From an uncultured delta proteobacterium (GTDB lineage: Bacteria > Myxococcota_A > Polyangia > Palsa-1104): 64,000 bases of DNA. The stretch covers positions 96,001-160,000 of the forward strand of contig CAWAWS010000005.1 of the NCBI GenBank assembly GCA_963785725.1, read 5' to 3'. Numbering within the stretch: position 1 is the stretch's first letter; each line of letters starts with the position of its first letter. Position numbers and translations under genes: made by a program. This document shows positions 2,329-30,644 of the stretch, one piece after another. The notes beneath the pieces are model-generated. The model saw nothing but the letters and a program-made list of their open reading frames with translations, made no database searches and was not told the origin of the DNA.

Positions 2329-2821
2329 TATTGGCGAATCACGAAATCTTCACAAAGCAGACCCGAGAGAAAATGATTTCACGGGTGCACATTCCAGTGA
2401 GCAGTGGCGACGCCGGCGCGCGCTCGTGCAACGCGAAGGCCAAGCAGATTGCAGCAAGAAACGCGCGGGAATGTCCGCGCTTGGCGTCGAGCCGCGGCTC
2501 ATCGTCACGGCTCTGCCGACGATTCACTGCGTGACACAGGCTGCGATGAGCTGCGCACGCTTTGAACAGTGCGCAACGATTGCGCCACGCGCGATCGCGG
2601 CGGCGCAAGACGACCTGGCTTCAAGTGGCGCTCGCGAGCATGCAGCGCGCGCCAACGGGTGCGCCGCTGTCGCCGGCGTGATTCTCGACGGCGCCGCCGA
2701 CGGACCTACTGCGGCAGCGACGGGCCGCAGCTTGGGCGGAAAGCCCCGCGGCAGCTCACCGCGCTCGTCGAGCCAGCCGAAGCGTCGCGCTCAGCGCCAC
2801 TGGGACGCCGAGCGCGGCTCG

Positions 2822-3319
2822 TCAATTCCCCGCGCCCGCGTCGCCGGCGGCCGACGGACAGAGCTGCGTGTATTTCGGGCTGCACGACGGCAACGCGAAG
2901 GACGCCGGCCCGCCGACGCAGGAGAACGAGCGCTGAAAGCTCAGCTCGTAGACGGCGACGAGCTGCCCCGTAGCCGAGTCGTAGATGTAGTTGGTGCTGA
3001 CGTCGGCGTTGGTCTGTACGACGTTGACGTAGCTGCCGCAGGTCTGTTCCGACAACCCCGCTGCGCCGGCACACCAGCCCGGCCAGCTCGACGGCTGCTC
3101 GGCCTGCTTCAGCGTCGCGACACACTGCCCCCAAGACGCTTCGGGATGGGCACACCAGCTCGCCAACGACTGAGGGCAGCCGGCGAGATCGGCCGAGACG
3201 GCGAGATCGGCGACGCCGGAGAGGTCGGTCTTCGTCCCGACGTCGCTCAGATCGGGTGTCGTCGAGGTCGCACCGCACGCGCCAATCAGAAAGAGCATCG
3301 GGACCAACATGCTGCGCAT
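2822..3319 (-). CDS. Cys-rich hypothetical lipoprotein
   Basis: MRSMLVPMLFLIGAC lipobox, DL-rich linker, about 8 Cys in the mature part. Confidence 0.65.
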   Translation of the reverse strand: MRSMLVPMLFLIGACGATSTTPDLSDVGTKTDLSGVADLAVSADLAGCPQSLASWCAHPEASWGQCVATLKQAEQPSSWPGWCAGAAGLSEQTCGSYVNVVQTNADVSTNYIYDSATGQLVAVYELSFQRSFSCVGGPASFALPSCSPKYTQLCPSAAGDAGAGN

Positions 3320-3395
3320 TTGACGAACTGTGCCGGCTTTTCGGCGTCGTCGCAATGACGCGGCTCACCGCGATCTCGGGGGCGAGCGACGAATG

Positions 3396-4721
3396 TCAGG
3401 GGTCCCAGGAAAGACCGAGCTCGACAAAGCCGCTCGAGCGCGACTTGAGCAACACGAAGTCGGGATAGGCGTAATAGAGATAATTGACTGCGATATCGAG
3501 GAGGATGCGCGTATCGCCGGGATAACGTGCCTGCCGGAGCACACGCGCCGCGCCGAAGTTGACGATATGTCCGAGCTCGCGACTCAGCTCTTTGTCGGAC
3601 GTGTAGTACGTATATCGATCGGGCGATAATAGATATTTCGAATGATAAAAGTCGGCGCCCGACTGTGCATAAAAACGATAGCCCAGTCGCACGCGCCATC
3701 CCGACGTGACCGCGCGCATCTCGGCGGCGGCCGCCAGGCTTTCGACACCCCAGTTGTCGATGCCGAGCCGGGCTTCGCCATGCAACGCCAATCCCTGCGT
3801 CAGCGAATGCACCCACTCGGCCACGGCCGCGTGGCGCACGCGCAGATTGGGCACCGTCTCGGGCAGCCCGTCCGCCGAGCCGATCGTGTTGGCGAACACG
3901 ATGCGCTGGTTCTCGCCGGTGCTCGTCGTCCAGTCGCCGAAGCGAACGTTGCGATAAGGCGAGCCTTGATAGCCGATCGCTGCCGCACCGTCGTAGCGCA
4001 GGCGCAGCGCGTCGTTGGGCGTGAGCACTTGGGCCAGTCCGGCGGTCCATCCGACTTCGCTCATCCGGCGCGCGAAGGTGCTGTCGAGGACGCTGCTAAT
4101 CCAATTGGCGGTGAACGTGAATCCGGCGAGCAACGTCATCGAGCGCTCCACTGCGTCGATCGATCCGTTGAGACCGCCGCTGACGCTGTTGTAGTCGCGC
4201 TCGTTGGCATACGCGGCCGACAGGTTGAAGGTGTGACCGCGACTGTCGTTCCAGCCCGAGCCCAGCGTTGCCGACAATCGGCGATCGGACATCTTGCCGC
4301 CCGACGTCGAGGTCGTCCCCGACGCGCTCGTCACCACGTCGACCTGGCTCAGCCCGGGCGAAGAGCGCACGTCGACCGAGGCGCTCGATACGACATCGAC
4401 GTCGGCGCTGCCGCTGATGGTCCAGCGTCCCACGCCGCCCGTCATCGCGGCCAGCGCGCGGAAGACGATGGTCTCGTCGCTGTCCGCGTAGAGCCCGAGC
4501 CGGCCGGCACCCGTCACCGGCGTCTTGGCCGGCGCCTCGCGACTGACCGCAGTGTCATCGACCTTGGCCGGCACGGGGCTCGACGGCGACGCCGGCTCGC
4601 GCGCGTCAGCGGCCGTCGCCGCCGCCGGGGCGCTCGGCGGACCGGCGGGCACACCTGATTCCTGCGCGCTCACCGAGGACGCCGCGACACACAAGGCGGC
4701 CACGAAGAGAGCGCGGGTCAA
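3396..4721 (-). CDS. DUF3570-family outer-membrane beta-barrel protein (copy 1)
   Basis: Signal peptide, YADSD, DVVSSAS-VD, ERDYNS, GYQGSPYR, YYTSDKELS, C-terminal LGLSWDP. Start (TTG) overlaps the DUF4266 stop; the ORF-track start at 4970 is too far upstream. Confidence 0.8.
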   Translation of the reverse strand: MTRALFVAALCVAASSVSAQESGVPAGPPSAPAAATAADAREPASPSSPVPAKVDDTAVSREAPAKTPVTGAGRLGLYADSDETIVFRALAAMTGGVGRWTISGSADVDVVSSASVDVRSSPGLSQVDVVTSASGTTSTSGGKMSDRRLSATLGSGWNDSRGHTFNLSAAYANERDYNSVSGGLNGSIDAVERSMTLLAGFTFTANWISSVLDSTFARRMSEVGWTAGLAQVLTPNDALRLRYDGAAAIGYQGSPYRNVRFGDWTTSTGENQRIVFANTIGSADGLPETVPNLRVRHAAVAEWVHSLTQGLALHGEARLGIDNWGVESLAAAAEMRAVTSGWRVRLGYRFYAQSGADFYHSKYLLSPDRYTYYTSDKELSRELGHIVNFGAARVLRQARYPGDTRILLDIAVNYLYYAYPDFVLLKSRSSGFVELGLSWDP

Positions 4722-4930
4722 TGACAACCACAGCCGGCACCGGCGCTGCCCGGACCGGCGCTGGAGAAGGTCCCTCCCTCCGTGATGTCGAGGACGGAGT
4801 CGCGCTGGGCTTCGGAAAGCGGCGCCATTTGGAACTGCATCGCCGGGCTGGCCAGTCGTTCGCGTTGCCAGGGATGGACCCGCGCGCAGCCGGAGAGCGA
4901 AAGCCAACAGACGGCTGCCAATCCCCACAC
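4718..4930 (-). CDS. DUF4266-family small lipoprotein (copy 1); start uncertain
   Basis: LSGC-ARVHPWQRERLA...EGG...GSAGAGCGCH, homologous to the two other copies in the window. Confidence 0.8.
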   Translation of the reverse strand: MWGLAAVCWLSLSGCARVHPWQRERLASPAMQFQMAPLSEAQRDSVLDITEGGTFSSAGPGSAGAGCGCH

Positions 4931-5410
4931 ACGGCGCTGATGACGAGTCAGTGGGTTCCGCGTACGCCAAGGAAACGAGCTATTCAATCGAGGACCTCGA
5001 TCGTTAGTGCCGCGAAGCTTGCCTTTGAGACAAACGACGTTGCTTTTTGCAGCTAGAGACAAAGATGAGTGCCCAGGCGCACATTCAGCGACCGATGCCG
5101 ACGACCGCTTTGACGATTCCGGGATCACCGTTGCTCTCCTCCTAACGGAGTTGCGTGAGGGTCACGCCGCAGGCTGGGCGACTGGCCGGTTCCACCAAGC
5201 AAGCTCGGAGCCAAAACGCGCGGCGGCTTGGTGGTCAATCGCGGCCCACATCGCGGCACGCCTGCCGGCGAGCGTCGAGCGTGACTGGCCGCACGCGCCG
5301 AGGTGCGCACGAATCGGACAGTGCGCGGACGGCGGTCGCGACCGTTCGCAAAACACGCGGCTGCCGCTTGAATCCGCGGCCGAACCTGCGCATCGTGGAG
5401 GCTATCAAAA

Positions 5411-6031
5411 ATGCTTAAGCCTATCGTTGCCACGCTCGTCCTCCTCATCGCGACGTCGCCGCTCTTCGCCGAAGGCCCGCAAGACGCCAAGGCGCATTAC
5501 GAGCACGGCGTTTCGCTGTATGCGCTCGGCGACTACGCGGGCGCCGCCGATGAATACGAGAAGGCCTTCGCGCTCAAGTCCGATCCGGCGCTGCTCTACG
5601 ACGCCGCTCAGGCCCACCGACGCGCCGGCCACAACGCGCGTGCGCTCGCCCTTTACGAGAACTATCTCGCGCTCTTCGGCGATCAGGTGCCCAACCGCAA
5701 AGAGGTGCAGCGCAAGATCGAGGAGCTGCACGTCGCCGTCGAGGCCGAGCGCAAGGTGCAGACCTCGCCGCCGATGGAGCCGGTGCCGATGCAAGAGCAT
5801 GCGCCGGTGGAGACGGCGCCGCCGGCGGTCGTCGCCGTGCCGCAGGATTCGCTCACGACGACGCCACCCGCACCGCCGCCACCGCGGAGCCGCCGGCTGA
5901 CTTGGCTGCTCGTCGGCGCCGGCGCGGTCGTCGTCGTCGGTGTGGGGCTGGGTGTCGGGCTCGGCATCGGCCTCTCGAAGACCGTCGCGCCTTCGCCGTC
6001 TTTCGGCGCCGTCCCGGTGACCGCGAAATGA
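5411..6031 (+). CDS. TPR-repeat protein with C-terminal membrane segment
   Basis: Signal peptide, AKAHYEHG..LYALGDY..AA.EYEKA TPR pattern, Pro-rich linker, hydrophobic C-terminal helix. Confidence 0.8.
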   Translation: MLKPIVATLVLLIATSPLFAEGPQDAKAHYEHGVSLYALGDYAGAADEYEKAFALKSDPALLYDAAQAHRRAGHNARALALYENYLALFGDQVPNRKEVQRKIEELHVAVEAERKVQTSPPMEPVPMQEHAPVETAPPAVVAVPQDSLTTTPPAPPPPRSRRLTWLLVGAGAVVVVGVGLGVGLGIGLSKTVAPSPSFGAVPVTAK

Positions 6032-8574
6032 CGCGCGCGATCGCATGGCCCCTCGTGTGCGCGGTCCTGACGCTGGCGGCCGGCTGCACCAAGACCGCCG
6101 CCTGCAAAGCGGGCACGCTGCTCGTCACGGTCGATCTCGACGCGACCGCGAGCGCGGCCGATAGCCTGCACGTCACCGTCGCCGTGACCGGCGGCCAGAC
6201 GTTCACGGGTGTGGCCGCGCACGCCTCGTCGGCAGCAGCGGGAACACTGGAGGTCGACTTCCCCACGGGCGCCTACAGCGCCGGCAAACCGGCGACGGTC
6301 ACCATCGCTGCGTTTCGCGCCGGCGCGATGCTGGGCAGCGGCGCCGCGTCGCTGTCGCAGCTGGCGGCGTCCTGCAGCACCGTCGCGGTCACGGTGCGCT
6401 CGATGCTCGGCGATATGGGCGCCGGCGACCTGGCCGGGAGCGACATGACGCCGCCGGCCAAGGTCTTCTCGCTGCGAGCAGCGGTCGACTATGCCGACGG
6501 CCCGTCGACCGGTGTGCCCTACTCCGCGGCGATCGGCGATCTGAATGGCGACGGCAAGAACGACATCGCGGTCACCAACGACGCCGCCGGCGTGGCTATT
6601 TTGCTCAACAACGGCGACGGAACCTTCGGCGCGCCGGTGCTCTATCAAGCCAACCAGCATCCGCAGTCCGTCGCGCTCGGCGACGTCAACGGCGACGGCA
6701 CGATCGATGTCGTGGTCGCCGACTCGCAGTCCAACGACGTCACGGTCTTCTTCAACAACGGCAGCGGCGTCATCACCCAAGCCGGCCTGTATCAGGTGGG
6801 CACCGATCCGGGTGGCAGCGGCGCCAACGCGATCGCCCTCGCCGACTTCAACGGCGACAGCAAGCTCGACCTCGCCGTCGCCGCGGCCAACGGCGCCAAC
6901 GTCTTCCTGAACCAGGGCAACGGCACCTTCCCGACGACCGCCACGGTCTATGCCGCCGGCATGCGCCCGGCCGGCATCGGCAGCGCCGATCTCAACGGCG
7001 ACGGCAAACACGATCTCGTCGTCGCCAACAGCGGCAGCGCCAACGTCAGCGTGCTCCTCAACAACGGCAGCGGCGTCTTTGCTGCTGCCGTCAATTACAC
7101 CGTCGGAAGCTACCCCGTGAACGTGGACCTCGGCGACGTGACCGGCGACGGCAAGCCCGACATCGCCGTCGCCTGCACCGAAGGCATGGGCGGCGTCACG
7201 GTGCTGGTGAACAAGGGAGATGCCAGCGGCACGTTCCCGACCTCGTTTGCGGTCGACGCCAACGAGCCGGGGCCGACCGGCGTGGCCATCGGCGACATCG
7301 ACGGCGACCAGAAGAACGACATCGTGCTGGCGAACAACAATGACGGCCTCATCTACGTCCTGCACAACATGGGCGGTAACGCGTTCGCTGCACCGCAGCG
7401 GTGGGCCGCCGGTGCCTTCGCCTATGACGTGCACCTCGGCGATCTCGGCAACGGTCACCTCGACATCGTCGCCACGAACGGCGGCAGCGGCGATACGACG
7501 GTCATCCTCAACGACGGCGCGGGCAACTTGGTCGCCGGCGCCAACTACGTCTCGGGCATCGGCTCGATCGCCGTCGTCGTCGCCGACGTCAACACCGACG
7601 GCAAGGACGACCTCTTGCTCGCCAACAACGGCAGCGGCGCCGGCGTCATGCTCGGCAAAGGCGACGGCACGTTCCAGCCGTTCGTGTCTTACACCGCCGG
7701 CACCAGCCCCGTCGGCATCGTCAGCGGCGACTTCGACGGAGACGGCTGGATCGACCTGGCGCTGGCCAACGCCGGCACGACCACGGTCGCGGGCAGTCTC
7801 ACGGTCCTTACGAACAAGAAGGACGGCACGTTCAATGCGGCGGTGCCTTACACGGCGGGCACGACGCCGTCGGGCCTGGCGGTCGGCGACCTCTCCGGCG
7901 ACGGCAAGCTCGACCTCGTCGTGGCCAACGGCGGGAGCAACAACATCAGCGTTTTCGTGAACACCGGCACGGGCGCATTCGCGGCGCCGGCGACCTACGC
8001 CGCGGGAGCCAAGCCCTCGGCCGTCGCGGTTGGCGACGTGAACGGCGACCACGCCAAGGACGTCGTCATCGCCAACAGCGGCAGCGGCAACGTCACGGTC
8101 TACCTCAACGACGGCACGGGTAAGCTCACGACGCCGACGACGTTCATGGCCGGCATGGCGCCGGCGTCGGTGCTGCTCGTCGACCTGGACGGCGACGGCG
8201 CGCTCGACATCGTCGTGCGCGACGGCGGGCTCGCCAACGTCGACGTGCTCAAGGGCAATGGCAACGGCACGTTCGCGGCGCCCGTTCCTTATCCCGTCGA
8301 TTCCGGGTTTGCGACGGCGATGGTGGCCGCGGCCGACCTCGACGGCGATGGCCAGCTCGATCTCGTCGCCACGGACGCGAGCGAACAGGTCAGCGTGCTG
8401 CTCGGCAAAGGCGGCGCCACGTTTGCGCCGCGCATCGTCTACGCCGGCGGTGAAGACCCGACCGGCATCGCCATCGCCGACTTCGACAAAGACGGTCGCC
8501 CGGACGTGGTCGTGACCGACACCGCGGCCAATCTCAACGGCGGCGTCACGGTTCTATTGAACACCACGCACTGA
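6028..8574 (+). CDS. FG-GAP/VCBS-repeat (integrin-alpha-like beta-propeller) lipoprotein
   Basis: LAAGC lipobox and about 14 D-x-N/D-GDG-x-x-D repeats. ATGA overlap with the TPR gene. Confidence 0.9.
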   Translation: MTRAIAWPLVCAVLTLAAGCTKTAACKAGTLLVTVDLDATASAADSLHVTVAVTGGQTFTGVAAHASSAAAGTLEVDFPTGAYSAGKPATVTIAAFRAGAMLGSGAASLSQLAASCSTVAVTVRSMLGDMGAGDLAGSDMTPPAKVFSLRAAVDYADGPSTGVPYSAAIGDLNGDGKNDIAVTNDAAGVAILLNNGDGTFGAPVLYQANQHPQSVALGDVNGDGTIDVVVADSQSNDVTVFFNNGSGVITQAGLYQVGTDPGGSGANAIALADFNGDSKLDLAVAAANGANVFLNQGNGTFPTTATVYAAGMRPAGIGSADLNGDGKHDLVVANSGSANVSVLLNNGSGVFAAAVNYTVGSYPVNVDLGDVTGDGKPDIAVACTEGMGGVTVLVNKGDASGTFPTSFAVDANEPGPTGVAIGDIDGDQKNDIVLANNNDGLIYVLHNMGGNAFAAPQRWAAGAFAYDVHLGDLGNGHLDIVATNGGSGDTTVILNDGAGNLVAGANYVSGIGSIAVVVADVNTDGKDDLLLANNGSGAGVMLGKGDGTFQPFVSYTAGTSPVGIVSGDFDGDGWIDLALANAGTTTVAGSLTVLTNKKDGTFNAAVPYTAGTTPSGLAVGDLSGDGKLDLVVANGGSNNISVFVNTGTGAFAAPATYAAGAKPSAVAVGDVNGDHAKDVVIANSGSGNVTVYLNDGTGKLTTPTTFMAGMAPASVLLVDLDGDGALDIVVRDGGLANVDVLKGNGNGTFAAPVPYPVDSGFATAMVAAADLDGDGQLDLVATDASEQVSVLLGKGGATFAPRIVYAGGEDPTGIAIADFDKDGRPDVVVTDTAANLNGGVTVLLNTTH

Positions 8575-19327: not shown

Positions 19328-19341
19328 ACCGAGGAGGGCTC

Positions 19342-19611: not shown

Positions 19612-20471
19612 CGGCGACGACGCGCGGCGAGCACGAGGAGCGGCAGCAGCAGCAGTATCGTCAGTGACCCGCGCGCCGGCGCGCCGCCCAACGCGCACGC
19701 CGCGCTGGCACCGGTCGGCACGCTCGCTCCCGCCTCTTGCAAGAAGAAGCTCGCCTGCGCGGTGTCGTCGCCGTACGGATTCTGATCATTCGCCGCGGTC
19801 CCAGCGCCGCCGTTGCCGTCGACGGCAGCGACGTAGACCGTGACCGGCCCGGTGCCGGCGGGCGGCGCCGTCCACCACAGGTGCCACGTGGTCGGCCCGT
19901 TGCGCACCACGAGCCGCGCGGTGTTGGCATCGAGCTGGCGATTGCCGAAGATGGCGTCGCCGTCCGGCGCGACCAAGGCCTCGTCGTTCGTCTGATCGGG
20001 CGCGGGGCAGACACCGGCGACCGGCGCCGCGGCGCAGAAGCCCTTCGTCAGCGGCGCGCCCGCGGCGTCCACCTCCAAGCCGAAGTTGTTGTTGTTGCAC
20101 TGCACGTAGCCGCTCGACGTGCCGGGCGGATCGGTGCAGGTGGGGCTGTTGTATTGCGTGCCCTTGGTCTCGTTCTTCAGCTGCACCTCGAGCTCGTACG
20201 TCTGCCCCGGCACGTAACCGCTCTGAAAGAGCGCCGGCTGATCGGCGGCCAGCTCGAGCCCGAGCGCGCGCGGCCCGTCGGTGTGGCAGCTGTTGCACGT
20301 CAGCGACGCGAAGCGCGGCGCGCCGGTGAAGTAGATGCCCTCGCCGCTCGCGCCGTAAGTCGCGCCGTGCGGCACCATCGGGTTGGCGAAGAACTGCGTG
20401 GCATCGTCGAAGGCGTGTGCTGCCGTCGGTAAGCCGAGGACGAAGAAGATCGCGATCCACTTAGAGCGCAA
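19578..20471 (-). CDS. Secreted CxxCH + Reeler-like protein with MYXO-CTERM-type anchor
   Basis: Signal peptide, TCNSCH, WWTAPPAGTGPVTVYVAAVDGNG, C-terminal ACALGG...LLLLPLLVLAARRRR. Confidence 0.7.
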   Translation of the reverse strand: MRSKWIAIFFVLGLPTAAHAFDDATQFFANPMVPHGATYGASGEGIYFTGAPRFASLTCNSCHTDGPRALGLELAADQPALFQSGYVPGQTYELEVQLKNETKGTQYNSPTCTDPPGTSSGYVQCNNNNFGLEVDAAGAPLTKGFCAAAPVAGVCPAPDQTNDEALVAPDGDAIFGNRQLDANTARLVVRNGPTTWHLWWTAPPAGTGPVTVYVAAVDGNGGAGTAANDQNPYGDDTAQASFFLQEAGASVPTGASAACALGGAPARGSLTILLLLPLLVLAARRRRHARRSSGDTP

Positions 20472-21782: not shown

Positions 21783-22854
21783 TGATGCCCGCTTCGATGT
21801 TGGCGCCGTCACGCGACGTCAAGAGCGCGAAGTCGAGGTACTTGAAATGGAAGTAGTCGACCTTGGCCTCGAGCTCGAGCGCGCGATGCACCCACGGCAG
21901 CCGCCACGACACCTTGGCGCCGACCAAGTTGGACCAAAAGGTCGACAGCTCGCGATCGGCGGTGACGAAGTTGCCGAAGCTCTCGGTCGTGTAGTGCGTC
22001 TGAAAGAAGCTGGCGCCCTTTTGAAAATAGAAGCGCTCGCGCAGCCGCAGGGTCACGTCGCCGAACGTGACGAAGTAGCGCAGCTGCATCGTCTGCGCCT
22101 GCACGCCCCAGTTGTCGGAGTAGAAGCGATAGTCCGCCTGCAACGCGGTATCGGTGAACAGGTGGCGATTGAGCGCGAGCACGACGGCGTGGCGATAGCG
22201 ATCGTTGGGATCGCTCTCCGGCACCTTGAACGCGATGCTGCTCGCGCCATTCGCCTCCGGATCTTCGATGCGCACGAAGCGATACGGGCTCGCTTGATAG
22301 CCGTCGTTGTACGCGAACGAATAGGACAGCTGCGCGATGGTGCGCCGGTCGATCACTTGGCTCCACGACGCCGAGACGCCGTTGACGAGGAGCGAGCGGT
22401 GAAAGAGCTGATCGCCGGTGCGTCCGACGCTGTTGGCGGACACCGAGTAGCCGACCGACAGCGTCGAGTTGCGCTCGAACAGGTCCTGCGCCAGCCCGAA
22501 GTCGACGTTGTGCGAGCGATAGTCGTTCTCGACCGAGTAGACGTAGCTCCCGGTGAGCGTCGTCGCGTGGAACTTCTGCGTCAGGCCGGCGGAGATCTCG
22601 CTGCGAAAGTCGGTCATGCGCTTGGTGGCGTTGCTGATGACGTCGACCGACGCCGAGCTGACGATGTCGGCGACGTAGCTGGCGGAGACGGTGCCGCCTT
22701 GCCAGGCGTCGCGCGAGATGGCCGTCAGCGGCGACACGACCGTCGTGCGATCGCTGTCGGTGTACACCTGCGTCTTGACCGTGAAGCTATCGTCGGCGTG
22801 AGCGGCGGCCGGCAGCGCCAGCGCCAAGGCGAGGACGGCGAATCTCAATTGCAT
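21769..22854 (-). CDS. DUF3570-family outer-membrane beta-barrel protein (copy 2)
   Basis: YTDSD, DIVSSASVD, ENDYRS, GYQASPYR, YSDNWGV, TADRELS, C-terminal INVIY. Confidence 0.85.
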   Translation of the reverse strand: MQLRFAVLALALALPAAAHADDSFTVKTQVYTDSDRTTVVSPLTAISRDAWQGGTVSASYVADIVSSASVDVISNATKRMTDFRSEISAGLTQKFHATTLTGSYVYSVENDYRSHNVDFGLAQDLFERNSTLSVGYSVSANSVGRTGDQLFHRSLLVNGVSASWSQVIDRRTIAQLSYSFAYNDGYQASPYRFVRIEDPEANGASSIAFKVPESDPNDRYRHAVVLALNRHLFTDTALQADYRFYSDNWGVQAQTMQLRYFVTFGDVTLRLRERFYFQKGASFFQTHYTTESFGNFVTADRELSTFWSNLVGAKVSWRLPWVHRALELEAKVDYFHFKYLDFALLTSRDGANIEAGINVIY

Positions 22855-23057
22855 CCGCAGCCGCCTCCAGCCGAGCCATAGCCGCCGACGGCACCTTCGC
22901 GCGCCTCGAGCATGTGCAGATCGAGGACGTCTTCGTGCGGGTCGGGCTGGAACGTCATCGTCGGCTTGGCCAAGAGCTCGCGCTCGTAAGGCTTGACGCG
23001 AACACAACCGGCGGCGCCCGAGAGCGCCAGAGCGAGAATTACGAAGCGCATCGTCAT
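22845..23057 (-). CDS. DUF4266-family small lipoprotein (copy 2)
   Basis: AAGC-VRVKPYERELLA...AREGAVGGYGSAGGGCGCN. Confidence 0.9.
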   Translation of the reverse strand: MTMRFVILALALSGAAGCVRVKPYERELLAKPTMTFQPDPHEDVLDLHMLEAREGAVGGYGSAGGGCGCN

Positions 23058-23620
23058 CGCGGCGTCAGCCCCATCATCGTGAAGACCGTCTGGCAGCTCG
23101 CGTCGACGGGGCTCGACTGCTTGGCGCCGCCGATCCACGCCACGAGCGCTTGCCAATCGGCGTCGTCGGTCAGCGTCGTCGCCGGATAGACCGGGAAGAT
23201 GCCGACGCCGTGATGCTCGGCGCCGCCGAAGCTGGCCTTGAGCGGCTTACCGAGCAGCGGAATGTGCTGCAGGTCGGGCTGCATGCGCTCGGCGGCGGTC
23301 GCGGCATAAAGCAGCCCGGAGACCGACTCGAAGTTGAGCTCGACCTCGGAGTCGGTCAGGCGCGCGTCGCGTCCATCGCGCGTGCCGTCGTCGGTCTGGC
23401 GCAGCTTGCCGGGCGAGTACAGCCGCAGCGCGTGGTCGGCGTTGCCGTGGCACGCGAGGTACGAGCAGCGCCGAATCAGCACCGGCTCGACCGTGCAGAC
23501 GAACTGGTTGTAGTCGAGGAAGGCGTCGGGCGAGCCGGTGGTCTGCAATCCTTGCGTGTGGTCGAGGCCGGGGCAGCCGGCGACCGTAGCCACGACGATG
23601 ACGGCGAACAGGCGATTCAC
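23054..23620 (-). CDS. Lipoprotein with CX4CH putative heme-binding motif
   Basis: VAGC lipobox; F...VEPVLIRRCSYLACHG, LLGKPL...HHG, LVAWI. Confidence 0.7.
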   Translation of the reverse strand: MNRLFAVIVVATVAGCPGLDHTQGLQTTGSPDAFLDYNQFVCTVEPVLIRRCSYLACHGNADHALRLYSPGKLRQTDDGTRDGRDARLTDSEVELNFESVSGLLYAATAAERMQPDLQHIPLLGKPLKASFGGAEHHGVGIFPVYPATTLTDDADWQALVAWIGGAKQSSPVDASCQTVFTMMGLTPR

Positions 23621-23673: not shown

Positions 23674-23689
23674 AGCAAACGGAGTGCCA
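23674..23689 (-). promoter_or_regulatory. Sigma54 -24/-12 promoter
   Basis: Minus strand TGGCACTCCGTTTGCT, upstream of the 23620-to-19578 operon. Confidence 0.75.
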
Positions 23690-23910
23690 GCGACTGAGGC
23701 GCGCGACAGCAGTTTGCAGTGCGCAACGATCGTACAGCGCGCCGCCGTCGCGGGACCTATCAGTCTGATCCGGCTCGGTCGCGGTCGTACGCGACCCTCC
23801 CTCTTGGCTCGCTTGCGAGTGGGACTGCAAACCGGTTCGCACGCAGGCGGGAGCGCAGTCGCCGGGTCATTTCGCGTCGCCGCGGCTCGCGTCCGGCGCC
23901 GAGTTGCGCG

Positions 23911-23926
23911 TGGCACCGCGCTTGCT
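23911..23926 (+). promoter_or_regulatory. Sigma54 -24/-12 promoter
   Basis: TGGCACCGCGCTTGCT, 13 bp before the Rieske ATG at 23940. Confidence 0.75.
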
Positions 23927-23939: not shown

Positions 23940-24698
23940 ATGCGCGATGACTCGAAATGCGCCACTTGCCTCGATCGGCGCGCCTTTGTCGCGGCCGCCG
24001 GCGTCGGGGCGCTGGCGCTGGCGCTTCCCGGCTGCGAAGCGCCGACGACCGCGGGACGCATTTCCGAAGGCCCCATCGATCCGACCACGGGCGGAACCGG
24101 CGGCAACGGCAACGGCGGCGGAGACACCGCCGGTGGCGGCGGCAGCGCCGGCGGTGAAGCGGGCGGCGGCGGCAGCGCCGGTGGCGGCGGAACCGCGGGC
24201 GGTGGCGGCGAAGCGGGCGGCGGCGGAACTGCGGGCGGCGGCGGAACTGCCGGTGGCGGTGGAACCGCCGGCGGCGGCGGAAGCGCGGGCGGCGGCGGAG
24301 CCGCGGGCGGCGGCGGAACTGCCGGTGGCGGCGGCAGCGCGCCCACTTGCACGCCGGGCACGCTCGCCGCGGGCGCCGCGTCGAGCTACACCGTGGGCAC
24401 GGCCAAGAGCTTCAGCAACGCCATCAGCTCCGGCGGCCAAAAGTACACGATCTTCGTCGCCAAGGACGCCAACGGCTTTTACGCGATGGACTCGGACTGC
24501 ACGCACGCCGGCTGCCCGGTCGCGTCGCAAGGCACCACGTACTACTGCAACTGCCACGGCGCCACCTTCGACGCCAACGGCAAGCACACCGGCGGCCCGG
24601 GCAGCGGTTATTTGCAGCATTACACCGTCTGCGTCGACGCCAGCGGCAACGTCACCGTCGACATCGACAGTCAGGCGACGCCGACGCAGCGCTTCTGA
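23940..24698 (+). CDS. Tat-exported Rieske [2Fe-2S] lipoprotein with Gly-rich linker
   Basis: DRRAF twin-Arg motif, LPGC lipobox, CTHAGC and CNCHGATF. Confidence 0.9.
   Translation: MRDDSKCATCLDRRAFVAAAGVGALALALPGCEAPTTAGRISEGPIDPTTGGTGGNGNGGGDTAGGGGSAGGEAGGGGSAGGGGTAGGGGEAGGGGTAGGGGTAGGGGTAGGGGSAGGGGAAGGGGTAGGGGSAPTCTPGTLAAGAASSYTVGTAKSFSNAISSGGQKYTIFVAKDANGFYAMDSDCTHAGCPVASQGTTYYCNCHGATFDANGKHTGGPGSGYLQHYTVCVDASGNVTVDIDSQATPTQRF
24090..24340 (+). repeat. Intragenic 18-bp tandem repeat encoding GGGG(S/T/E)A
   Basis: About 12 degenerate units. A similar tract lies at about 57865-57960 in the ricin gene. Confidence 0.85.
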
Positions 24699-24707: not shown

Positions 24708-24953
24708 CTATTCGACCCGCGTGTGCGTGGCGTCCCAGACGATCTGCAGGCCGGCGAACTTGCGCAGCCGATCGCGCACGCTCACTTTGCCTTCGATGAT
24801 CTCGTCGGCGAGATCGGGCGCGAGGAACGACGGCGGATCCTGCCGCAGCGCCAGCTCGTCGGCGCGCGTGAGATAGAGCGCGATCGGCGCTTGGCGGTGG
24901 GTTCCGATATACGCGTCCTTGAGCGCCCGCACGCGCCTCTCGAATTCCGTCAT
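24708..24953 (-). CDS. Small hypothetical protein
   Basis: MTEFERRVRALKDAY...VWDATHTRVE, with high-GC3 codon usage. Confidence 0.55.
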   Translation of the reverse strand: MTEFERRVRALKDAYIGTHRQAPIALYLTRADELALRQDPPSFLAPDLADEIIEGKVSVRDRLRKFAGLQIVWDATHTRVE

Positions 24954-25355
24954 CTCGCGTCCGCGTCCAAGCGCCAAGAGCGGAGCAAGCGCCATTCCCA
25001 GCCCGAGAGCGCGGCAGACCGGGCAGCCGCAGCGGCCAGCTGCGCAACGTTCGAACAGAGCGCGCAACGATCGTACAATTCGACGACGACCCGCATGTCT
25101 GACCCGCGGCGGCTTTGGCGACGGTCCGCGCAACTCCAGTAGCGTCTCTTTCGGCGGCCTCGCGAGCGTCTGCACGCGGCACGAAGCGGGAGGCCGCTTG
25201 GACGAGGCAACGTTGGAGTGCGCCGGTCAACAGCCCGCCGACGAGATCGAGCGCTCGCCGGCGACAGTTGACGCGAATCGACGACCGCGCGACCGATCAA
25301 ATAGCGACGATTAACGGTGCCGCGTTCACCACTGCCAATCACACTGTCAGAGCCC

Positions 25356-25562
25356 ATGATGAAGCTCGCACTCCTTGTCACTTTCGTCTCCACCACCGTC
25401 GGTTGCGCCACCGTCAAACCTTGGCAGCGCGAGAGCCTGGCGCAGCCGGGCATGAGCCTCGACGCCACGCCCAGCGCCGCCGCCGAGCAGCACATGCTCG
25501 AGTCGCGCGAGGCGTCCGTCGGCGGCTTCGGCGGCGCCGGCGGCGGTTGCGGCTGTAACTGA
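25356..25562 (+). CDS. DUF4266-family small lipoprotein (copy 3)
   Basis: TVGC-ATVKPWQRESLA...SREASVGGFGGAGGGCGCN. Confidence 0.9.
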   Translation: MMKLALLVTFVSTTVGCATVKPWQRESLAQPGMSLDATPSAAAEQHMLESREASVGGFGGAGGGCGCN

Positions 25563-25563
25563 G

Positions 25564-25745
25564 AACCCCAGGCTTCGCCTCGATTGAGCAGGCGAGGGCG
25601 AGGCGTGTGAGTCGGATCGTGGATGCGACCACAGCGACCGACCGAGGAATACTGTCCGTATTTCGACCGAGGGAGCGCGGACGTAGTCCGCGAGGCGGCC
25701 GCACGCATCGTCCGTAGCGGATCGATCGAGGCGAACCCTGGGGTT
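25564..25745. mobile_element. MITE/REP-like 182-bp element with 21-bp terminal inverted repeats
   Basis: AACCCCAGGCTTCGCCTCGAT (25564-25584) pairs with ATCGAGGCGAACCCTGGGGTT (25725-25745), 20/21 match. Internal GAATAC/GTATTT hairpin; no transposase. Confidence 0.6.
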
Positions 25746-26976
25746 AGAAGCGCCCGGTGGCCGACAGCGCCAGCACGAGCGCGCTGGCGAAGCCGCGGGT
25801 GCGCGCGGCGTTGGGCGGCTCGGGCGAGAGCGCGAAGATCTTGACGTAGTCGGCGCCGAGGCTCCATTCGACCTCGGTGAACATGCGCCAACGCCGCTTG
25901 TCCGGCGAAAAGCGGCTGTCGTGGACGAAGCGCGCGCCGAGGAGCAGGTCGGCGATCGGCGCCAGCTCCTGGTCGGCCGTGAAATAGCGGCCCACCGGCC
26001 CGGCGCGCTCGTAGGAGTCGGCCCAGCCGACGTCGCGGTAGAAGCTGGCGCTCGACTGCACGTAGCCGCGAGCGCGCGCCACGTAGCGCCACGCGGGCGC
26101 GCTCAGCTTGAGCGGCTGCTCCCAGCTGACCTCGCCGGTGATCGCTTGGACGCCCCAGGTGTCGCGATAGAGCCGCAGGTTGCCGCCGAGCGTCGCCCGG
26201 AGCGACGGCAAGGCGTAGCGGACGCGGGCGGTGACGGCGCCGCGGTCGCGCAGCCGCGGATGCGACTCTTGCGCCTGCATGAAGCCGTCGTCGAGACGCA
26301 CGCGGCGGTAAGGGCTCGACTGAAAGCCGTCCGCGTGCTGCCACGTGCCGCTGAGGCCGCCGAGCAGATGCGCCGTCAGCGACTGCACCACCCCGACTTC
26401 GAGGTCGTCGAGGTCGAGCCGCTCCTCGGTCAGCGCGGCCACGCCGGCGAAGCAGCCACGCGAGCTGTCGAGCGGCTGCCGCAGCGTCAGCGCCACGCCG
26501 GGCTGATTGAGGTCGCAGATGCTGTCGAAGCTGTGGCTGTAATCGACGGTGAGGATGGTGTTGTGCTGCGCGAGGTCGAGCGTGAGCCCGCCGCGGATGA
26601 GGTGCGAGCGATAGTCGCTCTCGGTGCCGTAGCCGTAGCCGGCGCGAAACGTCGCCGGCCCGGCGGTGGCCGCGGCGCCGCCGCCGATGACGTTGCGCAC
26701 CTCCGAGAAGCGGGTCGCGGCGCTGACGACGTCGGGCGAGCCGTACGTGCGCGGCGTGGCGCCGGTGACGATGTCGGCGCTCCAGTTGACGTCGAACAGG
26801 AGCCAAGGCTTCGCGTGGACCTTGCCGGACACGGACGGCGTGATGACCACCAGCGCATCCGACGACGCCGGCTGGACGAAGACGCGCAGATCGGCGTTGG
26901 CCTCGCCCCGCTCTTGCGCGGCCGCGGTCGCGACGACGAGCGTGACGAGCGCAGCGACGACGGCAGCGCGGATCAC
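25744..26976 (-). CDS. DUF3570-family outer-membrane beta-barrel protein (copy 3, divergent)
   Basis: ADIVTGAT, DVVSAAT, ESDYRS, GFQSSPYR, YRDTWGV, TADQELA, C-terminal TGRF. GTGA overlap with the upstream gene. Confidence 0.8.
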   Translation of the reverse strand: MIRAAVVAALVTLVVATAAAQERGEANADLRVFVQPASSDALVVITPSVSGKVHAKPWLLFDVNWSADIVTGATPRTYGSPDVVSAATRFSEVRNVIGGGAAATAGPATFRAGYGYGTESDYRSHLIRGGLTLDLAQHNTILTVDYSHSFDSICDLNQPGVALTLRQPLDSSRGCFAGVAALTEERLDLDDLEVGVVQSLTAHLLGGLSGTWQHADGFQSSPYRRVRLDDGFMQAQESHPRLRDRGAVTARVRYALPSLRATLGGNLRLYRDTWGVQAITGEVSWEQPLKLSAPAWRYVARARGYVQSSASFYRDVGWADSYERAGPVGRYFTADQELAPIADLLLGARFVHDSRFSPDKRRWRMFTEVEWSLGADYVKIFALSPEPPNAARTRGFASALVLALSATGRF

Positions 26977-27398
26977 GGCGTCACCCAATCCTCGATGACG
27001 CTCGCCGCCGTCGCGCGATCGAGGACGACCGGCCCGGGCGGATGCAGGTTCGACTGACCTTCGGGCACCGTCAAGAGGCGACTCGCGAGCGGCTCATCGC
27101 AGCGCACGAGCTGCAGCGCGGACAGATAGTTCTCGCGCCAGCCGAGCGGCCAGGCGGCGAGCGGCGTGCCTGCCGCCGGCGCGGCCTCGGGTGGACGCAG
27201 CCGCAGGTAGCCGTGCCCGTCGTCGAAGGCGTGGCAGCCGCGCGTGCTGCAGCGGTTGGCCTCCAGATAACGCGGCCAGACTTCGCTGACGAAGATATCA
27301 GGGCTGGCCGCGCAGGCGCCCGCGTCCGGCACGGTCCCGGCATCGACCGTGCAGGCTGCGCCAGTCATGAGCGCCAACATCGCCAGACGTCGCCACAT
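26973..27398 (-). CDS. Lipoprotein with CX4CH putative heme-binding motif
   Basis: GAAC lipobox; FVSEVWPRYLEANRCSTRGCHA, RLLTVP...LHP, IEDWV. Confidence 0.7.
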   Translation of the reverse strand: MWRRLAMLALMTGAACTVDAGTVPDAGACAASPDIFVSEVWPRYLEANRCSTRGCHAFDDGHGYLRLRPPEAAPAAGTPLAAWPLGWRENYLSALQLVRCDEPLASRLLTVPEGQSNLHPPGPVVLDRATAASVIEDWVTP

Positions 27399-27446
27399 CG
27401 TCGCAGCCGATCTATGCAGCCGCGCCGGCGTGTCTACAAAGCAGTC

Positions 27447-27950
27447 ATGAGCGAGCGGCGAGCCAGCGTGAGCGTCCGGCCTATTGAGCCGGCGGATCGA
27501 GCCTTTCGCGTGTCGACCAGCGGACGTGGTCACCCGAGCGATTGCACGCGGCGCCTCTTCAACCTGGCCGTGTGCGGCCTCGGCGCCGAGCTCTTGGCCT
27601 GTGGCAGCGCGACGACCGTGCTGACGCCCACCGCCGACCGGGTGACGCTGACCTACGCGCAGTTCCCGGCGCTCGCCCAGGCCGGCGGCAGCGCCGTCGT
27701 CGACGTCGCCGGCGGTTTCCCGCTGGTCGTCGTGCGCACCGGCGACGCCACCGCGGTGGCGCTGAGCGCCACCTGCACGCACGCCGGCTGCATCCTGCGC
27801 TACGAGCCGAGCGCGTCCGACCTTCACTGCGACTGCCACGGCGCCAACTTCAGCCTGGGCGGCGCCGTCTTGCACGGACCGGCGACCATCCCGCTGCCGC
27901 TGTATGCCGCCACGACCGGCGCCGACGCCATCACCGTCGACCTCGCCTGA
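27447..27950 (+). CDS. Tat-exported Rieske [2Fe-2S] (lipo)protein
   Basis: TRRLF motif, LLAC, CTHAGC and CDCHGANF...GPA..PL. Confidence 0.88.
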   Translation: MSERRASVSVRPIEPADRAFRVSTSGRGHPSDCTRRLFNLAVCGLGAELLACGSATTVLTPTADRVTLTYAQFPALAQAGGSAVVDVAGGFPLVVVRTGDATAVALSATCTHAGCILRYEPSASDLHCDCHGANFSLGGAVLHGPATIPLPLYAATTGADAITVDLA

Positions 27951-27966: not shown

Positions 27967-29199
27967 CTAGGACGCGTCTTGCAGCAGCTTGAGCAGCTCT
28001 TCGGGACTGACGAAGCGGTCGATCTTGTGCACCTGCTTGCCGTCGGCGCTGACCAGCACCAGCGTCGGTAGCGTCTCCGCGTTCCAGTGCGCTTTGGCCG
28101 CCGCCACCGCCGGATCGTCGTCGTTCGTGCAGTTGACCTTCACCAGCGTGAAGTGACCGAGCGCGCGCGCCACTTCGGTGCGGCTGAACGTCTTGAGCTC
28201 CAGCTCTTTGCACGGCAGACACCAGTCGGCATAGAAGTCGAGCAGCACCGGCTTGTGCAGCGCGCGCGCCAGCTTGAGCCCTTCGTCCTCGCCGTGCACC
28301 CAGGTCAGCACCGGCGCGCCCGCTTCCAGCTTGGGCGCCAAGATGCCGCCGATGACGCCGAACAGGCCGACCACCACGACGCCGACCGAGAGCGCCTTGC
28401 GCAGCTTGACCACCGTCGTGTCGTGAAACGACAGATGCACCGCGCCGAGCGCCAGGCCGGCCGCCGCCACCGCGCCGCAGCCGACGAGCCACAGCGTCGA
28501 CGGGCGGCCGATGGCGCGCAAGGGCGCGATCACGTTGCGCAGGAAGTACAGCGCGCCCACGAGCATGACGATGCCGAAGACGCTCTTGACCGCCTCCATC
28601 CACGCGCCCGACTTGGGCAGCGCGACGGCGAAAGCGGCGATGGCGAAGAAGAGCACGCCCATGCCGAGCGCGTAGGTGACGAGCAGCGAGCCGCCGAGCA
28701 GCACCGACTTCGTCGTCGCCACGAACGCCAAGATCGAGGCCAACACCGGGCCGGTGCAAGGCGCGGCGATGATGCCGCCGACGAGGCCCATCGCGAAGGC
28801 GCCGAAGAAGCCCTTGCCGCCGACCGAGGTCAGCTTCTGCTGCAGCTCCGACGGCAGGCTGAGCTCGAAGGCGCCGAACATCGACACCGCCATGATGACG
28901 AAGAGGGTCGCGATCGGCACCATGACCCACGGGTTGGCCATGAACGTGCCGAACGCCTTGCCGGCCAGCGCCGAGCCGACGCCGAGCGCCGCGTACATGA
29001 CGCCGATGCCGCCCACGTACAGCGACGCCAGCGCCATGGCGCGGCGGCGCGGCACGTCGTCGCCGCGCGCGCCGAAGAGCGACACCGTGATCGGGATGAG
29101 CGGATACACGCACGGCGTCAGCGACGTCAGAAAGCCGCCGACGAAGACGCTCGCGTAGGCCCACAGCCAGCCGTGCGCGAACAGCGCGCCGCCGTTCAC
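27967..29199 (-). CDS. dsbD: DsbD/CcdA-type transmembrane electron transporter with C-terminal thioredoxin domain
   Basis: LTPCVYPLIP, APCTGP, LPKSGAWM, DFYADWCLPC. No N-terminal alpha domain. Confidence 0.88.
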   Translation of the reverse strand: MNGGALFAHGWLWAYASVFVGGFLTSLTPCVYPLIPITVSLFGARGDDVPRRRAMALASLYVGGIGVMYAALGVGSALAGKAFGTFMANPWVMVPIATLFVIMAVSMFGAFELSLPSELQQKLTSVGGKGFFGAFAMGLVGGIIAAPCTGPVLASILAFVATTKSVLLGGSLLVTYALGMGVLFFAIAAFAVALPKSGAWMEAVKSVFGIVMLVGALYFLRNVIAPLRAIGRPSTLWLVGCGAVAAAGLALGAVHLSFHDTTVVKLRKALSVGVVVVGLFGVIGGILAPKLEAGAPVLTWVHGEDEGLKLARALHKPVLLDFYADWCLPCKELELKTFSRTEVARALGHFTLVKVNCTNDDDPAVAAAKAHWNAETLPTLVLVSADGKQVHKIDRFVSPEELLKLLQDAS

Positions 29200-29690
29200 T
29201 GGTTCACCAGCGCCAACAGCTGCGCCTCGAGCTTGGACTCGTCGCCGGGCTCGAAGCCGCCGTTGATGGCGCGCACGACGCCGCGCTTGTCGATGACATA
29301 GGACGACGGCATCTTCGGCGGCTCCCAGCGACCGACGATCTTCTTGCCGCCGTCGTTGATGACGGTCAGGCGGATGCCCTTGGCGCGCAGGAAATCCTCG
29401 GCGTTCTTGCGATCGTCGTCGATGTTGACGGCGACGATCTCGACGCCCTTTTGCTTCAGGCGCGGCGCCAGCTGCGACAACAGCGGCAGCTCCTTCTTGC
29501 ACGGCTCGCACCACGAGGCCCAGAAGTCGAGCAGCACCACCTTGCCGCGCAGCGACGACAGCTTGAGCGGCTGCTGGGTCAGCGTCGCCGACTCGAAGTC
29601 GGGCGCGGCCTGGCCCGGCTTGACCTCCGCGAACGCCGACAGTGGGCCAAAGAGCGCGACTACGAGGGCGAGCCTGGAAACGAGCTGCAT
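29196..29690 (-). CDS. TlpA-family periplasmic thiol:disulfide reductase
   Basis: Signal peptide, GKVVLLDFWASWCEPC, MPSSY.ID. Confidence 0.92.
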   Translation of the reverse strand: MQLVSRLALVVALFGPLSAFAEVKPGQAAPDFESATLTQQPLKLSSLRGKVVLLDFWASWCEPCKKELPLLSQLAPRLKQKGVEIVAVNIDDDRKNAEDFLRAKGIRLTVINDGGKKIVGRWEPPKMPSSYVIDKRGVVRAINGGFEPGDESKLEAQLLALVNQ

Positions 29691-29713: not shown

Positions 29714-29729
29714 AGCAAGCCGGGCGCCA
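29714..29729 (-). promoter_or_regulatory. Sigma54 -24/-12 promoter
   Basis: Minus strand TGGCGCCCGGCTTGCT, upstream of the tlpA-dsbD pair (GGAGG RBS follows). Confidence 0.7.
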
Positions 29730-29949
29730 CGTGAGCTGGGCGTCGTCGCCGCCGTTTTACGACCGCGCGCGACCGCCGATCTCGCTGGCAACGCTGCCGA
29801 TCGCGCGGCTTGCAAACTCGGACGCGCAGCGCTGGGTGCGCAGTCACCGGGGCGCCCTGCCGCGCTCGCGCGACGACGAGGCGGGCGGCAGCCGTCGCCA
29901 CGCTGTTCGCGCGCTGCGCAACTGTTCGAATCCTGCGCAGCGACGAGAG

Positions 29950-30558
29950 CTACGGCGTGAGCGTCGTCAGCTGAAACGAGGTCGGCAGAGCAGCCAGCAC
30001 CGCGGGAACGAGCGCGCTGTTGTAGCCGTTGCCGAGGCGGATGCAGTCGTCGTCGCCGTCGACGACCGCCTGATCGAAGTCGACGCCGGCGAACCAAGCA
30101 GCGACGTCGATGGTGACGGCGAAATGGATGGTCTGACCGGCGGTGAGCTCGCGGCCGGACGACGCGCGCAGATCGGCCACCACGTCGTCGTCGTCGTCGC
30201 GATCGACGAGGTCGACGACCAGCGAACGGCCGCGCCACTCGCCGCTGACCTGGAGCGACTGGACGGAGAAGCGCAAGCGGCTGTAGACGCCTTGCGGCAG
30301 GCCATCCATCGTCAGCGGCGTCGCCGGCGTGAGCGCGTTCACGGCGACATCGGGCAGCATGTAGCCGGGCGCCGCCTGCACGTCGCCGAAGAGCGACAGA
30401 TCCTCGAGCACGAGCGCGGCGCTGTCGACGGTGAGCGGCCCCGACGGCAGCGGCTGCGTGGCGAACGCGACCGCGACCGACCCCGTGGACTGAGCCGGCG
30501 CCGACGCGCCACCGCCGCAGCCGGCGACCAGCAGCAGCAAAGTCCAGCACGACTTCAT
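29950..30558 (-). CDS. Hypothetical lipoprotein
   Basis: MKSCWTLLLLVAGC lipobox; acidic, beta-rich. Confidence 0.65.
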   Translation of the reverse strand: MKSCWTLLLLVAGCGGGASAPAQSTGSVAVAFATQPLPSGPLTVDSAALVLEDLSLFGDVQAAPGYMLPDVAVNALTPATPLTMDGLPQGVYSRLRFSVQSLQVSGEWRGRSLVVDLVDRDDDDDVVADLRASSGRELTAGQTIHFAVTIDVAAWFAGVDFDQAVVDGDDDCIRLGNGYNSALVPAVLAALPTSFQLTTLTP

Positions 30559-30571
30559 GGGGCACCCATGC

Positions 30572-30587
30572 AGCAACGGCAATGCCA
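30572..30587 (-). promoter_or_regulatory. Sigma54 -24/-12 promoter
   Basis: Minus strand TGGCATTGCCGTTGCT, 13 bp before the ATG at 30558. Confidence 0.7.
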
Positions 30588-30644
30588 AACGGAAGACGGC
30601 GCCGCGCGCGCTAAGTTCTGGCCAACTGCGCACGGATCGTACAG

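Follow-up and report, generated by a model that had tools for sequence, protein, structure and literature searches.

The stretch analyzed here (called the window throughout) comprises 64,000 nucleotides from the genome of an uncultured delta proteobacterium of the class Polyangia (assembly GCA_963785725.1, contig CAWAWS010000005.1, positions 96,001 to 160,000 of the forward strand), a genome of 8.89 Mb with 68% GC, held in 47 contigs and 88% complete. We looked into a short DNA motif that occurs at seven loci of the window and into its relationship with a gene for an FHA-domain sigma54 activator at 30.7 kb. The original prediction had described an 18-bp motif (TGCGCA-N3-WTCGDACAG) serving as the enhancer of this activator, and comparison across genomes supported that claim well. 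We consider it highly probable, from the conservation of the DNA and of the predicted protein, that the motif is the activator's enhancer and likely also its self-repression site, and that the Ser/Thr kinase encoded next to the activator likely gates it. The sites, the activator and its immediate neighbors lie as follows.

2552-2568 and 2570-2586, plus strand: tandem sites, period 18 bp, the first strong (18.4 bits) and the second weak (11.8 bits)
5304-5320, plus strand: site with a half partner behind it (15.5 bits)
18062-18096, plus strand: tandem sites, period 18 bp (22.2 and 12.1 bits)
23720-23736, plus strand: the best site of the genome (26.9 bits), flanked by divergent sigma54-like promoters
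25041-25077, plus strand: tandem sites, period 20 bp (26.0 and 21.1 bits)
29923-29939 (strong) and 29904-29920 (weak), minus strand: tandem sites, period 19 bp
29950-30558, minus strand: divergent lipoprotein gene, no Pfam family
30627-30643, plus strand: site of 23.2 bits in the gap that separates the divergent lipoprotein gene from the activator, at a position shared with relatives of other families
30681-32006, plus strand: sigma54 activator with FHA, AAA+ and Fis-type helix-turn-helix (HTH) domains; the reading frame is open from 30645, with an uncertain start codon
31998-33383, minus strand: Kelch lipoprotein, conserved companion of the activator
33380-34423, minus strand: PEGA-like membrane protein, conserved companion
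34468-35931, plus strand: Ser/Thr kinase, conserved companion

The seven loci were recovered exactly where the prediction had read them (2552, 5304, 18062, 23720, 25041, 29939 on the minus strand, and 30627), with every string verified, and their placement upstream of or between genes held as well: the seven main sites and the partner at 25061 had a coding score of 0. Allowing one mismatch, the original pattern matched 8 times in the window (0.06 expected), a count reached by none of 100 shuffles, and these 8 were its sole matches in the whole genome, all inside 28 kb. The pattern had been derived from the window sites themselves, and a matrix built from relatives alone served as the independent test. 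We took 20 stretches from relatives; from 10 of these loci, 9 picked by an activator match and 1 by a DUF4266 and motif match, the intergenic DNA up to 10 kb from the activator (49 pieces) went into motif discovery, with no input from the window. Unseeded discovery returned GCTGCGCAAnnWTCGTACA in all top solutions. When the genome was scanned with the resulting matrix, window sites took ranks 1 to 4 and made up 6 of the 11 hits above 18 bits, and 15 column-shuffled matrices gave at most 1 to 2 hits per 30 kb. A reversed-pattern control was weak, as it does not preserve palindromic words, and we relied instead on the relatives-only scan and on the positional activator test described below.

The motif proved real but slightly shorter than first described. 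Its core spans 17 bp, namely TGCGCA, a 5-bp spacer ANNWT and CGTACA, and forms a polar, intergenic pseudo-palindrome; the G that closes the 18-mer is conserved at 64% and counts as spacer. The right half read CGTACA, CGAACA or CGGACA in 9 of 10 window sites. In a polarity search that treated both half-site types equally, pairs were mixed in 18/19 cases in relatives and 9/10 in the window (27/29 in total); the other two both combine TGCGCA with TGCGCA, and the opposite symmetric type did not occur. The sites had been called usually tandem with a period of 18 to 20 bp, and this stood for 4 of the 7 loci (18, 18, 20 and 19 bp), whereas 5304 has a half partner only and 23720 and 30627 stand single. 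Of 42 sites, 9 had a partner scoring more than 5 bits at +18 bp and 4 had one at −18 bp (13/42), with one each at 19, 20 and 21 bp and none elsewhere within 45 bp; many sites were single. Paired sites are separated by gaps of 1 to 3 bp. Such strict polarity, together with an abutting 18-bp geometry, is unusual for a homodimeric Fis-type HTH.

FHA-domain sigma54 activators are known in myxobacteria (Nla18 and MXAN4899), where they have an FHA-AAA+-HTH architecture and a proposed link to Ser/Thr kinases. The product of the 30.7-kb gene shares this make-up, with an intact GAFTGA motif in its AAA+ domain and a threonine-rich N-terminal tail (TTID). Activator matches at E ≤ 1e-95 were present in 9 of 14 genomes of the same family and in 0 of 26 others. 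All 9 relatives that have an orthologue carry the original pattern on the same contig as the best one, no more than 8 kb from it. The recognition helix SRRxLxYK was invariant in 11/11 aligned activators, and at E ≤ 1e-12 the local activator was the only HTH match in this genome. A tree of 40 AAA+-HTH regions contained one clade of 25 rows (support 98/97), comprising all 23 carriers of this helix and 2 members with an altered helix, and those two have no site. The presence of the HTH alone did not discriminate genomes with an exact motif match, since 5/5 control genomes have it; the position of the site relative to the activator, tested below, did.

The exact 17-bp pattern occurred in 31 of 301 genomes of the class, including 8 of 14 in the same family. 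Among 24 exact-match loci that we fetched (23 from outside the family), two from other families place the site between a helix-bearing activator and a divergent lipoprotein gene, with Kelch and kinase genes alongside and, in one of them, a PEGA-like gene too; at a third, three sites lie 4.5 kb away from a helix-bearing activator. We also performed the reverse test in 15 distant genomes, 13 of which had an HTH match, scoring the DNA ahead of every parsable FHA activator (three loci were not parsable). Immediately ahead of the gene, 9 of 22 helix-bearing activators had a site of at least 15 bits, as against 0 of 23 activators that lack the helix (at 12 bits or more, 10/22 versus 1/23). These upstream sites sit 255 to 290 nt before the FHA anchor, and two more helix-bearing activators have weaker copies there. 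Conserved co-location of activator and target across kin is an accepted basis for assigning such sites (PMC4641369). These results tie the motif to this FHA activator clade, at the level of sequence comparison, far better than proximity alone would.

Next to the sites we searched for sigma54-like promoters with a matrix set by hand from the −24/−12 consensus; the same consensus is given in PMC9765219. Distances were taken from the center of the site to the −24 G. Four sites had been placed near sigma54 promoters in the original prediction. The elements are indeed present, and in fact lie near all seven loci, at 40 to 203 bp and with 9.9 to 17.9 bits, aimed into the adjacent genes and in both orientations relative to the site. 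The elements and the genes they face are listed here.

2427-2443, minus strand: element ahead of the CqsB2-like cyclase gene (12.4 bits, 119 bp from site 2552)
1610-2251, minus strand: CqsB2-like carbazole synthase/cyclase (PDB 6IPV, E = 2.4e-49)
5198-5214, minus strand: element before the DUF4266a-DUF3570a-lipoprotein group (13.8 bits, 100 bp from 5304)
2822-4960, minus strand: DUF4266a-DUF3570a-Cys-rich lipoprotein group, with DUF4266a (ending GCGCH at 4718, start uncertain), DUF3570a (3396-4652) and the Cys-rich lipoprotein (2822-3310)
18138-18154, plus strand: element ahead of the Lgt-like gene (15.6 bits, 70 bp from 18062)
18250-19008, plus strand: Lgt-like protein (Pfam LGT; under the NCBIfam lgt cut-offs)
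23674-23690, minus strand: element of the DUF4266b operon (17.9 bits, 40 bp from 23720)
19578-23620, minus strand: DUF4266b operon, gene order kept in relatives
23054-23620, minus strand: CX4CH lipoprotein of this operon
22845-23057, minus strand: DUF4266b
21769-22854, minus strand: DUF3570b barrel
20461-21743, minus strand: barrel-like protein without known identity, frameshifted in the assembly
19578-20471, minus strand: CxxCH protein with a choice-of-anchor-V domain
23910-23926, plus strand: element ahead of the Rieske lipoprotein (13.5 bits, 184 bp from 23720)
23940-24698, plus strand: Rieske [2Fe-2S] protein with a twin-arginine-like lipoprotein leader
24984-25000, minus strand: weak, non-canonical element of the 81-aa gene (9.9 bits, 51 bp from 25041)
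24708-24953, minus strand: uncharacterized 81-aa gene
25356-27950: DUF4266c (plus), DUF3570c and CX4CH lipoprotein (minus) and Rieske (plus) genes, neighbors of sites that are unsupported as targets
29714-29730, minus strand: element ahead of TlpA-DsbD (10.7 bits, 203 bp from 29939)
29196-29690, minus strand: TlpA-like thioredoxin
27967-29199, minus strand: DsbD transmembrane and thioredoxin domains
30572-30588, minus strand: element of the divergent lipoprotein gene (16.7 bits, 49 bp from 30627)

Across the window and relatives, an element of at least 13 bits within 15 to 330 bp accompanied 17 of 43 site rows versus 3 of 113 control intergenic midpoints.

The most widely conserved predicted target, judged by gene neighborhoods, is the divergent lipoprotein gene, whose homologues neighbor the activator at most loci within the family and at some distant loci. 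Its atlas look-alikes, DUF4382 and MbnP, reached a likeness below 0.9 and serve as leads rather than as an identity. The second conserved candidate is an operon of the order Rieske-(TlpA-DsbD)-CX4CH lipoprotein-DUF4266b-DUF3570b-unknown-CxxCH protein. A site heads the Rieske-TlpA-DsbD-DUF4266b-DUF3570b operon in 9 relatives; in the window the Rieske gene is inverted, the 23720 site lies between two divergent promoters, and TlpA-DsbD is served by a site of its own. Second copies of the DUF4266b operon that have no activator lacked the motif in 3/3 cases, including this genome's own copy on contig C17. Upstream of that copy (~114200-114700) is a perfect palindrome, TGCGAAT-N-ATTCGCA, perhaps the site of another regulator.

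The motif had been proposed to link all three DUF4266 copies of the window. This stood for the copies at 4718 and 22845, each of which has a site, a correctly oriented sigma54-like promoter and counterparts in relatives (for DUF4266a-DUF3570a, sites at 2 of 3 such loci), and fell for the copy at 25356: the best sigma54-like element on the strand of DUF4266c scored −1.2 bits, and among the class-c loci of relatives a site is missing from 4 of 6. DUF4266c is therefore unsupported as a target, and the 25041 tandem fits the small divergent gene at 24708-24953 better. Nor are DUF4266 loci targets in general, as 44 other DUF4266/DUF3570 stretches gave a single hit above 15 bits, inside a gene. Same-family genomes carry up to seven DUF4266 copies, and at least six distinct conserved DUF4266/DUF3570 contexts exist (C7, C14 and C26 here). 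In relative G010 (L067:11103-15064), a fusion of glucose-6-phosphate dehydrogenase with a cyclic-nucleotide-binding domain, a possible source of NADPH, is encoded directly upstream of a motif-headed Rieske-TlpA-DUF4266a-DUF3570a operon.

The Lgt-like gene is a likely target; its site and promoter were found in the window only, and one relative has an Lgt-like gene ~6 kb from the operon. A metallophosphoesterase lipoprotein gene (16971-17945, minus strand), divergent from the same 18062 tandem, may be a further target. Its relative in a distant family (42% identical) lies two genes behind a strong site (L217:6156-8031), and neither gene has a clear sigma54 element. As for the carbazole-like cluster, which had been named a possible member, the CqsB2-like cyclase gene has a tandem site and a promoter in the expected arrangement, but no homologue of the cyclase was found in any of the 40 relatives searched; the cluster is plausible as a strain-specific target. 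The FabH-like and thiamine-diphosphate-enzyme-like genes beside the cyclase have broken frames in this assembly. The region 1-2251 (minus strand) and just beyond may form a carbazole or indole-derived natural-product cluster.

The predicted regulon appears narrower within the locus than claimed and is not merely locus-wide, as it reaches remote loci in relatives. In relative G002, remote motif members include a multi-heme MtrC-like cytochrome and an imelysin/di-heme oxidoreductase neighborhood, and second copies of thioredoxin reductase in G002 and G004 have a site upstream. Thioredoxin reductase was rejected as a general target: of 22 trxB loci only these two have an upstream site, the trxB of G013 merely precedes the operon's site, and both trxB copies of the present genome have none. 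For the multi-heme cytochromes of this genome the best site scored 11.2 bits, and none was counted. Genes adjoining sites in distant families encode mixed envelope and secreted proteins. In G288 (L215:5533-14339), three tandem sites with near-identical sigma54 elements lie close to the activator and head genes for cytochrome c and planctomycete-type PSD-domain proteins; they possibly mark another redox regulon of the clade, independent of the first.

What the targets do was approached through their families. DUF3570b was predicted to have an all-beta fold (predicted local distance difference test [pLDDT] of 91.7, 38 sequences) that resembles outer membrane porins and has no close homologue. 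A prediction for the CX4CH lipoprotein from 10 sequences (pLDDT of 43.5) was not used; its look-alikes are unnamed Myxococcota lipoproteins, and the nearest named cluster, PSCyt1 (16% of members), is a lead only. PMC8238504 describes ApbE, DUF3570, DUF4266, thioredoxin-like and DsbD-type proteins as a flavinylation-associated cluster of uncertain function and, its cluster table aside, names no regulator for flavinylation clusters; the DsbD/thioredoxin-like/DUF4266/DUF3570 neighborhood also appears in 10.1101/2023.06.07.544157. Similarly, DsbD, TlpA-like, DUF4266 (with a C-terminal CxC) and DUF3570 proteins are encoded together here. The window differs from that cluster in its added Rieske and heme-motif lipoproteins and in its apbE, which lies outside the cluster as a single copy on contig C25 and has no site. 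Each of 5 genomes tested has one apbE copy, none was among the fetched activator loci, and apbE was rejected as a target because no site above 15 bits was present at 5/5 loci. Of the flavin motif [S/T]GA[S/T], the canonical form TGAT was found in DUF3570c only, with SSAS, TSAS and SNAT at like positions in DUF3570a/b. Judging from family functions, the targets most likely carry reducing power from the cytoplasm to the periplasm and outer membrane, where it would serve heme attachment, thiol repair or metal reduction.

On the input side, the Kelch lipoprotein, the PEGA-like membrane protein and the Ser/Thr kinase accompany the activator wherever a family locus extends to them, and at several loci of distant families. 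A T-x-x-D tail precedes the FHA domain in 10 of 11 aligned rows (the eleventh has an uncertain start), and the FHA pocket is intact, with its conserved G-R, S-x-x-H and N-G residues. Most orthologues have ~110 additional residues between FHA and AAA+ that are not in the window's activator. DgcB, GarA and OdhI are switched by phosphorylation of such a tail, which then binds the protein's own FHA domain (PMC6733907). The local activator resembles them in its threonine-bearing tail and pocket and differs in its output, an AAA+ transcription activator, and in that its phosphorylation is predicted. By analogy, the same tail-to-FHA phospho-switch is predicted here, with an effect in either direction.

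Taken together, the activator would bind as dimers to the polar 17-bp TGCGCA-ANNWT-CGTACA site, often with two dimers abutting at 18 bp, and would open sigma54 promoters 40 to 200 bp away. The neighboring kinase would phosphorylate its threonine tail beforehand, the Kelch lipoprotein and the PEGA-like protein may do the sensing, and the site at the activator's own start would likely give self-repression. The output would be an envelope program, to which the divergent lipoprotein would belong in several families of the class; in this family it would comprise a reducing chain of DsbD and TlpA (with thioredoxin reductase in some relatives), Rieske and heme-motif lipoproteins, DUF4266 CxC lipoproteins and DUF3570 outer membrane barrels. 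The proposed logic and geometry are those of NmpR and PexR, both validated in myxobacteria (PMC11841059, PMC12754779). PexR binds CACCG-n6-CGGTG, including at its own promoter, as a dual repressor-activator (PMC12754779); Nla28 binds CT(C/G)CG(C/G)AG, mostly within genes (PMC9765219). The local system shares with them the placement of interrupted pseudo-palindromes or repeats, in tandem, ahead of sigma54 promoters, and differs from them in site sequence and sensor domains. MXAN4899 binds promoter fragments, as cited in PMC7910581. The literature covered, mainly open-access papers with supplements excluded (PMC8238504 cluster table, PMC12316311 promoter lists), held no defined operator or regulon for this FHA clade and no regulator for DUF3570/DUF4266 clusters. 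Paired pseudo-palindromic sigma54 enhancers are already known, and this predicted regulator-site pair is new.

Several observations weigh against this assignment. The related genomes in the comparisons are not independent. No activator with this helix was present at 21 of the 24 exact-match loci, and a DUF4266/DUF3570 gene at none of them; several exact matches fell in coding DNA or lacked a sigma54 element, so some are chance or remote targets. Among the helix-bearing activators, 12 of 22 had no own-start site of at least 12 bits, including the scored members of one subclade. No sigma54-like element of at least 13 bits accompanied 26 of the 43 site rows, and the promoter enrichment itself was counted with tandem partners as separate rows, in genomes that are kin, and with a hand-set matrix. 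Three window distances (40, 49 and 51 bp) are below the usual enhancer distance of 80 to 150 bp (PMC7910581). Distant clade members carry T-Q-E or T-L-D tails, so T-x-x-D is not universal. Finally, with ~68 sigma54 activators in a genome that is 88% complete, another binder retains a small probability.

We consider it very unlikely that the sites belong to a different sigma54 activator encoded elsewhere, such as an NmpR-like response regulator, with the local activator no more than one of its targets. A few of the ~68 activators have similar helices, and NmpR of M. xanthus, which controls oxygen-use genes, binds GCGCA-N5-TGCGC, with the same left half and spacer (PMC11841059). NmpR is likewise a sigma54 activator with paired intergenic sites, its own locus among its targets and a redox-related regulon. 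However, it has a receiver domain and a symmetric site; all NmpR-bound sites match a perfect GCA-N5-TGC, with gaps of 14 to 15 bp preferred (PMC11841059), whereas 9 of 10 window sites have another right half and the gaps here are shorter, so that identity with the NmpR box was rejected. The local system instead combines an FHA protein, kinase-PEGA-Kelch companions and a polar site with a CGTACA right half, 18-bp abutting partners and 27/29 mixed pairs, and its motif tracks the FHA clade across families and is absent where the helix has changed.

It is also improbable that the local activator mainly represses housekeeping promoters from these sites, the sigma54-like elements being secondary. 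In distant relatives the site ends 4 to 12 bp ahead of the activator's predicted start, several sites lack a good sigma54 element, and PexR offers a precedent for a dual role (PMC12754779); repression at the activator's own gene is in any case compatible with an enhancer function. On the other side stand the enrichment of sigma54-like elements, their direction into the targets and the intact GAFTGA motif. It is very improbable that the motif is read by one of the window's regulators of other classes (the AraC-type one at 10880 or the winged-helix one at 10048, both located between sites) or by an alternative sigma factor, for which the polar motif could pass as a −35/−10 pair, as the halves are 5 bp apart, too near for a sigma promoter, and the motif follows the FHA activator clade. 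That the sites are functionless remnants of a dispersed repeat or of local duplications, which did occur given three paralogous DUF4266/DUF3570 modules in the locus, is largely refuted and has almost no probability left, since the sequences flanking the sites do not align (so the motif is not a dispersed repeat), the motif is conserved across genera and families, and the recent C17 paralogous operon (68 to 93% protein identity) has lost it.

Some features of the assembly and of the rest of the window are also of note. The rpoN gene is present but divided between two frames (C20:359480-359960), so single-base indel errors are likely in the assembly, and frameshifts in the window are not to be taken as pseudogenes before polishing; genes at 20461-21743, at 55003-56628 and in the cluster at 1-1610 look similarly split. 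None of the sequencing runs listed for this DNA is of RNA, and contigs from four DNA runs, at 85% likeness, were too mixed for judging frameshifts or site spacing. Rfam gave zero matches within the window. At 5411-8574 (plus strand) and 12081-15010 (minus strand) a membrane-anchored TPR protein is twice paired with a large lipoprotein, which has FG-GAP repeats or choice-of-anchor D Ig domains; no motif site above 15 bits accompanies either pair. A third Rieske gene survives as a remnant at 19340-19620 (plus strand), downstream of the Lgt-like gene; it contains an in-frame stop, its N terminus is short and one ligand Cys is absent. An arsenic-resistance-like operon (ArsR, low-molecular-weight arsenate-reductase-like protein and SBF-family transporter) lies at 36815-39005 (plus strand), and a Bat-like MoxR-DUF58-vWA-BatD operon at 48167-56628 (minus strand).

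More tentatively, the locus may represent an ancient trans-envelope circuit of the Polyangia, in which Kelch and PEGA-like proteins would signal through the kinase and a tail-to-FHA switch to a sigma54 activator acting on directional, head-to-tail 18-bp operator arrays. Its output in this family might be an NADPH-TrxB-DsbD-TlpA line feeding Rieske, heme and DUF4266/DUF3570 barrel proteins and so amounting to an inducible electron conduit across the outer membrane. We regard this wider picture as doubtful; if true, an FHA-sigma54 activator would gain a defined regulon, and the DUF3570/DUF4266 module, so far an orphan, a defined pathway of induction.

FHA-sigma54 activators are a proposed link from the many Ser/Thr kinases of myxobacteria to transcription. 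One clade of them now has a specific predicted site, a conserved kinase module and named candidate targets, which makes kinase-to-sigma54 signaling testable in a heterologous host. The motif would also give a regulatory handle on the DUF3570/DUF4266 envelope module, and the trigger of the kinase would reveal the module's purpose.

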